Assembly: GCA_012295275.1 (NCBI GenBank)
Contig: CM022665.1
Span: forward strand, 49,104,001 to 49,168,000
Source of the DNA: Chrysomallon squamiferum
Lineage: Eukaryota > Animalia > Mollusca
Length of the DNA stretch: 64,000 nucleotides
Direction: 5' to 3'
Part shown: one piece after another, positions 39,701 through 56,462 of the stretch
How positions within the stretch are numbered: position 1 is the stretch's first letter
Layout: each line of letters starts with the position of its first letter
Program-made: the position numbers and the translations under genes
Notes under the pieces: model-generated
What the model was told of the DNA's origin: nothing
The model's input: the letters and a program-made list of their open reading frames with translations, nothing else
Databases searched by the model: none

Positions 39701-42700
39701 TTCATTTATTTATTTATTTATTTATTTGTCACTTTTATTATTATTATTGAAAGGACCTGTGTGTCGCACAATTTGATATATCTGTAAACTCTGTTTCTGA
39801 AAAAGTTATCTACAGACACGGAGAAGCGCCTTTAGTATTTTGTATCCTAGGTGAAACACGCACATATCTAACGAAAACGTTCAATTTCCTACTTAGAAGT
39901 CGTCTGTGGATGCTTAAAACAATTCATTCTTACAACTCATAATCTCAATTCTGGACTGACGCGAAAAATCATGAATATAATTGATCAATTTAAATGAAAT
40001 GAGTGAAAATTTCATCGAATTTTTCTTATGTAAAATCATAACAGTGTGACGAAGTACACTTCACAGATGTTTTTTTGTAAAATGTTTATTTTAATTTACT
40101 ATTTTTCAAATTACAGGGCTACGTTATAAAGTGACAGAGGATAGGTGTGAGCGATCAGGTATTTTTACACCTTTTTAAACGTAACTTATAAAGTGATTCT
40201 CATAAAAGTAATTGTTTTTTACTTTATTTTAGACTGATAAGAAAAGAGTACGTATGTATATATATATATATATTTAACAGTACCTGTGAAGGAAAGAAAC
40301 AATTGCCTAGCTATACGGTCTATACATCAAATAATTCAGCATGGTAATAAAATATTGATATCTCGTAATTTCAGTAGCTTAGAGGACCCTGCCCTGATAT
40401 TTACGTAACTCATACCAATCAATAGAGGTACGAACATCAATATCTATAATGTAATTCAGTTAATAGAATGTTTGTGCCATTTCAAATTATTTTAATTAAG
40501 ACAAAGTATCTCCTTCACTTCCTTGTTTCAAAAGGTATCACAAACGTTAACCTTGCAATTTAATTAACATCCTGATTTCGTTTTCAAATAGTTTGTATGT
40601 CTGTGACTTTGTGCATTTTTCTAATTTAAATGACTGCTATATGAATTATATTCTTATAATCGTAAGCTCATATTAATTTTACAACTTTTATTTTGTGTTA
40701 CCACTTCTTTTCTTCTGAAATTACAATTCTAGCCTATGAACTAACGGAAATTCTGCCACAGAAAATTTGTTTCCGATTAAATACTGTTGAACTATCCTAT
40801 TACTTGATATGTACAATTTAAGAACAAAAAAAAAAAAAAAATAGCGTTAACAAAGTTTATAAATTTCAGGATTTTTGAAAGATAATGAAAGAACACACAA
40901 TATATTAATAAATATATATAATGTTACATGGTTAAACCTTGTTAGTTTAGTTTGAAACTCTAAATAACAAGTAAATCTCGTTTTATTAAAAAGTAATTTG
41001 CATATTCACTCTTCGAAATGATGTCTGACTTAAAAGGATTTGTAACTATTTAACTGTTTTGAAATCATTTTATTTATTTACTTAATTATTTATTCATTTA
41101 TTTATTTATTTATTTATTTGTCACTTTTATTATTATTATTGAAAGGACCTGTGTGTCGCACAATTTGATATATCTGTAAACTCTGTTTCTGAAAAAGTTA
41201 TCTGCAGACACGGAGAAGCGCCTTTAGTATTTTGTATCCTAGGTGAAACACGCACATATCTAACGAAAACGTTCAATTTCCTACTTAGAAGTCGTCTGTG
41301 GATGCTTAGAACAATTCATTCTTACAACTCATAATCTCATATTTATAATTATTACAAATCAAACAAATGTCTCCTCCACTTCCTTGATTTAAAATGTATC
41401 ATAAAAGGCAAACCCGGAGTTTTATTAATGTCATGGTTTCGTGTCAAATAGTGTCTGTCTGTGACTTTGTGCATTTTTCTAAACTGAATAAGTACTACAT
41501 GAAAATATTAAGTGAATACAATGATTTTGTTACAGACGTAGGCTGATGTTAATTTTAAACATTTTATTTTTATTTATTTTTCTGAAATTACAGCTTTAAC
41601 CAGTGAACGATTGGAAATCAAACAGAACGCTATGTCACTGATAAATGCATTTGAAAACATCACAACAGAAGGTATGTACAATTTGATTTTTTCTTTCCAA
41701 TTTTGTAAATTTAATAATATTCGAAAGATGATGAAAGAACACAGAAATTAGCAACAAATAGTATATTATTACATGATTCAACCTTGTTTGTTTAGTTTCA
41801 TACTTTATGTAACAAGTGACACTCATTTTATTAAAACATAATTTGGATATTCATCCTTCGTAGTAAAGTCTGACTTGAAATCTTTAAAAAATTTTGTAAT
41901 TATTATTTTTATTTATTTATTTATTTATTTATTTGTTTGTTTATTTACTGATATATTTATTTATCACTATTATTTTTATTATTGAAAGGACATGTGTATC
42001 GGAACATTTGATATACTGTAAACTCTGTTTCTGACAAAGTTATTTGCAGACACGGAGAAACGCTTTTTGTATTTTATATCGTAAGTGAAACACACATCTA
42101 ACGAAAGGCTGCAATTTTCTATCGCTAAATCGTTTGTGGATGCTTAGAAGAATTAATCCTTACAACTCATAATCTCGATTCTAGTTACACTGTTTATCCA
42201 TCCAATAAATGTGCATGGCAATTAAATATTGATAGCTCTAATTTCAGTAGCTTATATTACCCTGCCCTGATTTTTACATAACTCATACCTTTCAGCAGTG
42301 CTATGAACGTTTACCTTTCAATAATGGAACGTCAACTTCTGTAATATACCTCACTTAGTAGAATGTTTGTCAGTGATTTCGAATTGTTAAAAGTCAGACA
42401 AATTTCTCCTTGACTTACTTATTTCAAAATTATTCATTAAAGGTAACATCAGAGTTTCATTAATGTCCTGGCTTTGTTGTCAGATAGTGTCTGTCTGTGA
42501 GTTTATGCATTTTTCTAATCTGAATGAGTACATCATGAATATAATAAATGAAATGAAATTATTTTTTTATAAACATAAGCTGATGTTAATTTTAAACATT
42601 TTATTTTTATTTATATCTCTGAACTTCCAGGTTTAACCGGTGAACGAAAGAAAATCCTGCAACAGAAAATTTCTTCACTAATAAATGTAGTTGGAAACAT

Positions 42701-54700: not shown

Positions 54701-56462
54701 AAAGACAGCTGAATACTTCACAATAGAAGGTATGTACAATTCAATTGTGTTTTTTTACAATTTTGTAAATATAATAATTTTCGAAAGATGATGAAAAATC
54801 CCCTAAGAAAGTAGGAAGGAATTGTACATTATTACATTATTAAACCTTGTTAGTTTAGTTTCGTACTTTATGTAACAAGTGTCCCTCATTTTACTAAAAC
54901 ATAATTTGGATATTCATGCTTCGTAATGATCTTTGACTTCAAAACATTGGTAAAATTTTAATTGTTTTGTAATCTCTCTCTCTCTCTCTCTCTCTCTCTC
55001 TCTCTCTCTCTCTCTCTCTCTCTCTCTCTCTCTCTCTCTCTCTCTCTCTCTCTCTCTCTCTCTCTGTATATATATATATGTGTGTGTGTGTGTGTGTATA
55101 TATATCATCACTTTTATTATTATTTCTGAAATATCCTGTGTATCACAGCAATTAATATATTTGTAAAATCTGTTTTTGAGAAAGTTGCAGACACGGTGAA
55201 ACGCCTTTTGTATTTCGTATCGTAAATGAAACACATACACCTCCAACGAAAACATTCAGTTTTCTATCTCGAAGTCGTCTGTGGATGCTTCGAAGGAATT
55301 GATCCTTAAAACTCAAAATCTCGATTCTATTTACACGGTCTATCCATCCAATAAATGTGCATGGCAATAAAATAGTGATATCTGGAAATTCAGTAGCTTA
55401 CAGGACCCTGCCCTGATCATTAAGTGACTCGACTTGTGTCTTTGTATTAACGAACGTCAACTTGTGTAATATATCTCAATCAGCAGAATGTTTGTGAGTG
55501 ATTTCGAATCATTACAAGTCAGACAATGTTTCCTTGTTTCAAAATTATCATAACAGGTAACCTCGGAGTTTCATTAATGTCCTGTCTCCGCTTTCAAATA
55601 GTGTCTGTCTGTGACTATTTGCATTTTTCTAATGTGAATGAGCACTGCATGAATATAACAGGTGAAATATAATTATTTTCTTATAAACGTAAGCTGATGA
55701 TACGTTTAAACATTTTATTTTGATTTATGTTTTTGAAATTACAGGTTTATACAGTTAAACCATCCTATTACTTGATATTTACAATTCAAAAAAATAATAT
55801 CGTTCACAAAGTTTGCAAATTTCAGGAGTTTTGAAAGATAATGAAAGAACACACAATATATTAATAAATAAATATACTGTTACATGGTTAAACCTTGCTA
55901 GTTTAATTTCAACCTTTAGGTAACAACTGACCGTCGTTTTATTAAAAAGTAATTTGCATATTCACTCTTCGAAAAGATGTCTGACTTGAAAGGATTCGTA
56001 ACCATTTAACTGTTTTGAAATCATTTTATTTATTTATTTATTTATTTATTTAATTATTTTTTCATTTATTTATTTATTTATCATTTTTATTATTGCTATT
56101 GAAAGGACCTGTGTATCGCACCCTTTGATATATCTGTAAACTCTGTTTCTGACAGTTATTTGCAGACACGAAGAAACACCTTTTGTATTTTGTATCGTAA
56201 TTGAAACAAGTAAACATCTAATAAAACGCTCAATTTTCTATCTCGAAGTCGTTTGTGGATGCTTAGAAAGAAATCATCCTTACAGCTCATAATCTTGATT
56301 CTAGTTACACAATTCTAGTTTTGTTATAAACGTATGTTAATTTTAAGCATTTTATTTTTATATATATTTCTCAAATTACAGGTTTACCCACAGAACAAAG
56401 GCAAATCGTGATACAGGACATTAATTCACTAAGAATAAAAATTGCAAAGAACACCAGAGAAG
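33759..56462 (+). CDS. Unannotated micro-exon gene/region: ATG exon plus 19 symmetric phase-1 micro-exons encoding variable 14-27-aa modules
   Basis: ATG exon 33732-33801 encodes MKEYRNLNLFIEQS. Short exons: 34121-34171, 35771-35821, 37164-37205, 38720-38770, 40117-40158. 78/81-nt exons: 41594-41671, 42631-42711, 44288-44365, 45319-45399, 46190-46270, 46729-46806, 47695-47775, 48729-48809, 49726-49806, 51325-51402, 52886-52966, 54003-54080, 54649-54729, 56382-56462. All have cag|...G|gta boundaries and lengths divisible by 3, with no stop in the phase-1 frame. The 3' end is unresolved. Confidence 0.75.
34735..40806 (+). pseudogene. Five inactivated copies of the 81-nt-type exon (~34735, ~36385, ~37772, ~39335, ~40725)
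   Basis: Homologous to the live exons (gaactaacggaaattctgccacagaaaatttg...acagttgaa), but the acceptor is acaa instead of acag and the donor is atatgt instead of gtatgt. Some copies have in-frame TAG/TAA. Confidence 0.7.
43179..43864. other. ~685-bp foreign insertion in an array intron (copy 1)
   Basis: Interrupts the conserved intron motif caactca|..aatctc. A near-identical copy lies at 50217-50901. Confidence 0.8.
50217..50901. other. ~685-bp insertion (copy 2, duplicated with flanking unit)
   Basis: Near-identical to 43179-43864, at the same insertion point. Confidence 0.8.
52384..55065. repeat. Three (TC)n microsatellites at the homologous position of array units (52384-52488, 53100-53354, 54974-55065)
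   Basis: Each follows attgttttgtaa in sister units. Source of the RE/LS pseudo-ORFs. Confidence 0.9.

Follow-up and report, generated by a model that had tools for sequence, protein, structure and literature searches.

How can the exons of a gene diverge faster than the introns that separate them, and do so mostly by changing amino acids? The question is raised by a tandem array of short exons in the gastropod Chrysomallon squamiferum, located in a window of 64,000 nucleotides (nt) that spans positions 49,104,001 to 49,168,000 of contig CM022665.1 (assembly GCA_012295275.1); all coordinates below count from the first letter of this window. A sequence-only reading of the window had proposed diversifying selection on the exons, possibly accompanied by exchange of exon patches and homogenisation of introns. 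Comparison of all the exons points the same way: the amino-acid-changing sites of the 14 intact long exons have diverged about 2.5 times as much as their silent sites and introns. The array probably belongs to one lineage-restricted snail gene with predicted helical repeats that diversify, likely through a changing foreign partner.

The array is made of homologous units of about 1 kb, each an intron plus an exon, which self-BLAST traces in tandem over 33939..57487 (+) as a mosaic of nested duplications; with its candidate first exon it occupies 23 kb (33.7-57.5 kb). Fourteen long exons (78 or 81 nt) are intact, five exons are short (42 or 51 nt), and eight further copies are dead, killed by loss of splice sites. 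AG/GT ends flank the 14 long exons, the five short exons and a candidate first exon of 70 nt. Long and short exons alike, 19 in all, are symmetric (phase 1-1) and open in one common frame, so the earlier statement that no live exon contains a stop stands, and stops close both other forward frames in 14/14 long exons. The lengths of all array exons are multiples of three, and the splice sites are strong and similar to one another. The label ‘micro-exon’ given to them before does not strictly apply: exons of 78-81 nt are short, yet above the usual size threshold. The intron of the array unit has no match elsewhere in the 64-kb window, and a 27-nt motif from it has 0 matches in metagenome contigs.

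The comparison of exon with intron distances that the sequence-only reading called for comes out in favour of its claim. Averaged over 91/91 pairs of long exons, the proportion of differing sites is 0.327 at nonsynonymous sites (pN) and 0.130 at synonymous sites (pS), with 0.283 for the exon as a whole and 0.145 for the flanking intron; Jukes–Cantor correction gives 0.443, 0.147 and 0.162 for nonsynonymous sites, synonymous sites and intron. pN exceeds pS in 91 pairs, exon exceeds intron in 89 and pS exceeds intron in 39, counts that are a description and not a test, as the pairs share history and are not independent. The flanks extend at most 450 nt upstream and 215 nt downstream and were compared by local BLAST alignment, which trims poorly matching ends; a multiple alignment, with the opposite bias, puts intron divergence at 0.175 (upstream flanks of 46190 and 56382 and downstream flank of 52886 cut at deletions). 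Four-fold sites differ at 63/387=0.163, and divergence at codon positions 1, 2 and 3 is 0.31, 0.33 and 0.20 (0.333 at second positions). Column diversity in the exon (0.284) is higher than in all 396 overlapping 78-column windows of intron (maximum 0.232). Intron divergence between units is itself uneven, from 1 to 21%. Silent sites are thus at the intron level and replacement sites alone are raised; therefore neither intron homogenisation nor exon-targeted hypermutation explains the excess.

Formal tests agree. In a codon model (MG94xHKY) fitted by maximum likelihood (ML) on the exon tree, dN/dS (omega) is 4.84 (profile bounds: lower about 2.6, upper above 8), and omega=1 is rejected (likelihood-ratio test (LRT) 29.5, p=5.6e-8). 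With relative branch lengths fixed, model M2a is preferred over M1a (LRT 35.0), placing 87% of sites at omega 5.2. Because recombination can inflate site models, tree-free checks were added. In the true frame the pooled pN/pS is 2.54, and the other five frames give 0.64, 0.57, 0.70, 1.41 and 0.58; 0/186 pseudo-exons drawn from introns attain the pN of the exons; and none of 4000 neutral simulations attains the pN/pS ratio, whether each exon was given one genealogy or as many as six independent ones to include mosaic ancestry. Isolated single-nucleotide differences, with no neighbouring difference, number 762 nonsynonymous against 65 synonymous (pN/pS 3.5-4.2). A minimum-step count biased towards silent paths still finds 84 nonsynonymous steps against 15 synonymous (26% silent expected; p=0.007). 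The earlier wording that only amino-acid-changing substitutions occur thus fits the closest pairs and not the array, where 15/99 minimum steps are synonymous. All 14 frames stay open in 1/3000 neutral runs at the exon tree length. The short acidic exons repeat the pattern: 35771 and 37164 differ at 17/42 nt and by an indel of 9 nt, whereas the intron downstream of them differs at 8/148, and 10 of the 12 codons that differ between 34121 and 35771 change the amino acid. Diversifying selection, as first proposed, is therefore upheld by the ML omega, the other-frame and pseudo-exon controls, the mosaic simulations, the removal of clustered changes and the step count, and is in itself very likely.

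The array has grown by tandem duplication of the units, and exon and flanks have mosaic ancestry. Upstream flank, exon and downstream flank give trees that mutually reject one another (approximately unbiased (AU) test, p<0.03 in 6/6; 11 units with both flanks, 46190, 52886 and 56382 excluded), and the dead exon 52080 lies 2/72 from exon 47695 though their flanks are ∼12% apart; the suggested exchange of exon patches is borne out by both. Exons 42631 and 45319 differ at 7/81 nt (first nucleotide counted) within flanks that differ by 14.6%, while 42631 and 48729 are near-identical up to ∼100 nt before the exon, the intron diverging from there too. Such mosaic pairs mislead in either direction, so the claim of selection is carried by the all-pairs and tree-free results. 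Four-gamete incompatibility within the exon is flat with distance (0.31 near, 0.30 far; 17 sites), a result equally compatible with the presence and the absence of tracts inside the exon. The dead 5' copies make a poor neutral control, since they arose too recently and are mosaic, with 0-12.5% divergence in the part that corresponds to the exon. Two side observations concern duplicated segments. A direct 3-kb duplication of 97% identity (35140-41064), in which neither of the two exon pairs shows a difference, may be a recent event or else a haplotype left uncollapsed. An insertion of ∼730 nt is present in two copies (∼43180-43905 and ∼50215-50940) upstream of exons 44288 and 51325, 99.4% identical over 780 nt with flanks, and is possibly a mobile element marking the latest segmental duplication.

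Single pairs had supplied the original argument, and most of their counts hold. Exons 52886 and 54649 differ at 9/81 nt with all nine amino-acid changes exactly as first listed, against 4/245 in the intron upstream (Fisher p=7e-4); adding the 63 alignable downstream nucleotides (5 differences) gives p=5e-3, and the upstream similarity stops ∼250 nt from the exon. For 41594 and 46729 the exon counts were right (5/78 nt, 3 altered codons, 0 silent) and the flank count slightly low (6/463 aligned nucleotides where ∼4 had been given), the contrast persisting at p=0.014. Exons 45319 and 47695 do differ at 7 nt in 6 codons, every one amino-acid-changing, but their flanks (11%) have diverged more than the exon (8.6%); this pair therefore supports dN>dS and not exon>intron. 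Exons 44288 and 51325 are uninformative (1/78 nt, V/I; flanks 0.8%). A stronger pair had gone unquoted: exon 54003 and the dead copy 57419 differ at 8/350 nt upstream and 16/70 in the exon part, where 10 codons among the first 22 are changed and 10/10 alter the residue.

Table 1. Exons, dead copies and terminal satellite of the array, in window coordinates.
Feature	Position	Strand	Remarks
Candidate first coding exon, 70 nt	33732..33801	+	AG/GT ends, frame check; role putative
Short exon, 51 nt, acidic	34121..34171	+	symmetric phase-1
Five dead long-exon copies	34735..40810	+	starts 34735, 36386, 37772, 39335, 40727; AA acceptor; GT donor absent; three contain stops
Short exon, 51 nt	35771..35821	+	identical to 38720
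Short exon, 42 nt	37164..37205	+	identical to 40117
Short exon, 51 nt	38720..38770	+	within 97% identical 3-kb duplicate
Short exon, 42 nt	40117..40158	+	
Long exon 1, 78 nt	41594..41671	+	
Long exon 2, 81 nt	42631..42711	+	
Long exon 3, 78 nt	44288..44365	+	
Long exon 4, 81 nt	45319..45399	+	
Long exon 5, 81 nt	46190..46270	+	
Long exon 6, 78 nt	46729..46806	+	
Long exon 7, 81 nt	47695..47775	+	
Long exon 8, 81 nt	48729..48809	+	
Long exon 9, 81 nt	49726..49806	+	
Long exon 10, 78 nt	51325..51402	+	
Dead copy	52080..52151	+	donor lost through 18-nt deletion
Long exon 11, 81 nt	52886..52966	+	
Long exon 12, 78 nt	54003..54080	+	
Long exon 13, 81 nt	54649..54729	+	
Dead hybrid copy	55745..55790	+	54003-type upstream intron fused via deletion to 37772-type dead exon
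Long exon 14, 81 nt	56382..56462	+	final intact exon of array
Dead copy	57419..57488	+	acceptor AC, runs into satellite
Satellite of 22-24-nt units	57502..59535	.	ends array

The changes follow a pattern along the 26-27 residues encoded by each long exon. Positions 1, 9, 16 and 20 remain hydrophobic and Thr24 is present in all 14; there is little change at the Leu-Thr cap, the hydrophobic positions 9, 13, 16, 20 and 23, and Thr24. The most variable positions are 3, 6, 7, 10, 14, 17, 19, 21 and 25, with seven different residues each at positions 6 and 10. The mean hydrophobicity profile has its periodicity peak at 100-105 degrees, and each long exon is predicted to form one amphipathic helix. 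An N-x-T sequon occurs in 9/14 long exons. Cysteines are only sporadic, at positions 11 and 14; the variable peptide has no conserved Cys column and no cysteine framework of the kind found in toxins. The candidate first exon has an ATG at 33759 and a frame that exits in phase 1, and the encoded start is non-hydrophobic.

Searches with the repeat returned little. A word-index search of the 14-exon alignment against proteins of 75-2000 residues gave 0/7988 candidates at E<=10; Pfam gave for 14/14 exons nothing better than E 0.14, in one exon; the best ESM Atlas score, 0.76 to EF-hand clusters, is below the level of a lead; and Foldseek with the single-helix model gave 0 matches. Three candidates were rejected: the single HMMER match among 1.84 billion representatives (E 6.6e-4), an unrelated low-complexity repeat; matches to HIV gp120 among PDB sequences (E∼0.01 over 16 positions), attributed to chance; and an LRR reading of the I-T-x-x-G-L junction, in which, compared by eye with the LRR consensus, the leucine spacing misfits and no Pfam LRR is found. 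Little about expression follows from these blanks, given that the kelch gene nearby likewise lacks an identical record (best 68%).

Several results weigh against selection on helical repeats of an expressed, possibly secreted protein. Three of the 186 intron pseudo-exons attain the pN/pS ratio of the exons, and the probability that all frames stay open rises to 0.028 at an intron-scale tree length. The ML synonymous tree length (0.59) is shorter than that of the intron trees (0.96 and 1.11, for 12 and 13 units), so the omega of 4.8 is probably too high, owing to constraint on silent sites, and about 2.5 times the neutral rate is the conservative value for dN. Each exon offers 26 codons with ∼17 silent sites, from one haplotype, and the fits used our own codon code, not PAML. 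The hydrophobic moment exceeds that of shuffled sequences (p<0.05) in 3/14 exons only, and AlphaFold, run on the exon alignment, places its helix at residues 3-19 of the exon with a mean pLDDT of 61, a low confidence. Thr24 is kept in 14/14 exons, so the sequon need not reflect glycosylation. The repeat has no homologue by sequence, profile, language-model features or fold in the searches above. A search nearby for a hydrophobic first exon in frame with the array found none, the in-frame ATG-to-donor candidates there (32090, 33759) being non-hydrophobic, which is hard to reconcile with secretion. Finally, it is from the DNA sequence that we infer translation and splicing of the array exons.

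Diversifying selection on the repeats of a single gene nevertheless remains the reading we favour. Units would have spread through unequal crossing-over and short conversion tracts, and selection would retain amino-acid changes at the variable positions while the cap, the hydrophobic positions and Thr24 change little. In-frame skipping of the symmetric exons could allow one gene to give variants in repeat number and content. The function suggested is read from the evolutionary signature alone. The binding partner may come from a host-microbe encounter, with a pathogen or symbiont, at somewhat short of an even chance; gamete recognition is possible but less probable, and a partner of another kind would be less probable again. 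The more ambitious proposal is an independent gastropod generator of diversity resembling the micro-exon genes (MEGs) of schistosomes: an orphan gene with helical repeat exons that are copied, reshuffled, inactivated, positively selected and skipped in frame into a repertoire of recognition proteins; in the boldest form of the proposal, BIR domains in tandem are attached and the product is an intracellular sensor. This is doubtful; if the skipping is real, it would extend the micro-exon-gene strategy beyond flatworms. The signature would point to a gastropod lineage, so far little studied, in molecular conflict with a microbe, symbiont or gamete, and the array is a compact system with built-in controls (silent sites, introns, dead copies) for telling selection and conversion apart in arrays of exons.

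Conserved introns around fast exons are a signature already known. In conotoxin and snake-venom families, as in the array, introns are more conserved than coding exons, but those are separate genes with a conserved signal peptide and a cysteine framework, neither of which is seen in the array; the toxin or immune label would be an analogy. In abalone, dN above intron divergence is reportedly the title claim of Metz et al. 1998. Abalone lysin and sp18, helical in fold, are likewise gastropod proteins under strong positive selection, but there orthologues or whole-gene paralogues are compared and no internal exon array exists; neither has a sequence or fold match to the array repeat (PDB sequences, Foldseek). 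For sp18, the accessible part of PMC9022041 gives dN/dS of 4.2-4.4 at 48% of sites. New here is the signature among 14 paralogous exons within an apparent single gene, affecting most of the repeat, in a module without known relative.

The locus works like oyster bindin or a schistosome MEG and fails the defining features of both. MEG exons are mostly <=∼36 nt, against 42-81 nt here, although in both systems the coding region consists mostly of symmetric exons that can be skipped in frame (19 exons here, all phase 1-1). Flatworm origin and MEG homology are absent: the neighbouring gene is gastropod and no homologue was found. In addition, the exons of the array are homologous to one another and show dN/dS of 2.5-5 between paralogous exons, whereas mature MEG-1, -9 and -15 have 1.10-1.14 between species; MEGs have signal peptides and are described as apparently flatworm-restricted (from the portion of PMC4350168 available). 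Pacific oyster sperm bindin shares with the array intragenic mollusc repeats under positive selection with recombination; the accessible text of PMC5712786 describes F-lectin repeats, positive selection, recombination in introns and splicing of a variable number of repeats. In bindin, however, an intron divides every one of the 1-5 F-lectin domains, against 14+ single-exon predicted helices of 26-27 residues in the array, and the F-type lectin domain of bindin is not found here (no Pfam or PDB match; helical prediction). No description of such an array was found in the literature (mostly freely accessible papers, supplements aside), and the part of PMC7142155 available contains nothing bearing on the array locus.

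Arthropod Dscam arrays also consist of tandem paralogous exons that change in copy number, and an unlikely alternative is a mutually exclusive cassette of this type, with one long exon per transcript and the alternatives diversified by selection. Tandem homologous exons of equal phase and tolerated dead copies would suit it, and tandem exon duplication has been linked to mutually exclusive choice in what is accessible of PMC9013439. Exon lengths in multiples of three and strong, similar splice sites, in contrast, fit inclusion or free skipping, and the best 25 of 287 inverted matches within 33-57.5 kb are all AT-rich simple repeats (BLAST, a weak test for docking sites). Dscam itself differs: its 130-160-nt exons encode Ig domains, omega between paralogues is 0.26, and the available part of PMC3236188 reports neither positive selection nor conversion among them.

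It is decidedly improbable that neutral or relaxed exons merely appear fast, their introns homogenised by conversion and their silent sites restrained by splicing signals. The mosaic documented by the AU tests, the striking pairs that are in fact breakpoints (such as 42631/48729) and the ML dS tree length below the intron length all speak for such a process. It needs, however, two separate effects to converge on the same level: pS of 0.130 and four-fold divergence of 0.163 equal the introns (0.145-0.175), for which reason the homogenisation first invoked is not required, and minimum silent steps per site are 15/20=0.74 against 0.71 in introns. Moreover, the introns are not uniform (1-21% between units), and exons convert too (52080/47695), which would reduce exon divergence.

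A similarly slim chance attaches to the array and the IAP gene downstream being one gene, in which the hypervariable helices would form an N-terminal sensor ahead of the tandem BIR domains of an intracellular protein. The phase-1 start of the first BIR exon (59718) is in frame with the donor at 56462 on the same strand 3.3 kb upstream; the window holds no upstream exon with the other half of this BIR, and no signal exon was found. Phase agreement, however, has a one-in-three chance of arising anyway, the join would begin with half a BIR, and a search for relatives of the BIR exon gave no candidates. The 3' end of the array gene is lost at the 2-kb, purine-rich satellite (57502-59535), which interrupts the last exon copy on one side and the first IAP intron on the other; this also tells against the link, as it suggests a real rearrangement or an assembly join. 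The IAP-like region itself (59534-64000, +) consists of ∼1.58-kb units, 98-99% identical, that add one BIR each; every unit has three exons (179, 45 and 163 nt; phases 1-0, 0-0 and 0-1) cycling in frame, and the first begins mid-BIR at the satellite edge.

That exon-targeted hypermutation or assembly error makes the excess is scarcely credible: some differences do fall in adjacent pairs (41594/46729), but raised silent sites, stops and frameshifts would be predicted, whereas length differences are whole codons, isolated differences keep pN/pS at 3.5-4.2, and the match of dS with the introns largely refutes the idea.

The window as a whole is AT-rich (GC about 0.22-0.42 per kb). Just upstream of the array, 26800-33200 is a patchwork of diverged direct repeats (66-90%) with repeated donor-like sites (28656/28750, 33188) that could include untranslated first exons. 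A multi-exon LRR gene (20260-25640, -) lies head to head with the array; its hydrophobic 5' stretch (25166-25640) has no Pfam match. Further neighbours are a FYVE gene, a TRM61/GCD14 gene and an intronless kelch-repeat gene (10118-11692, +) with a C-terminal hydrophobic segment. The kelch protein is 68% identical to its best match, from the peltospirid neomphaline gastropod Gigantopelta aegis, and 50% to Haliotis; besides mollusc proteins, its matches include many kelch proteins of bacterial and metagenomic origin.

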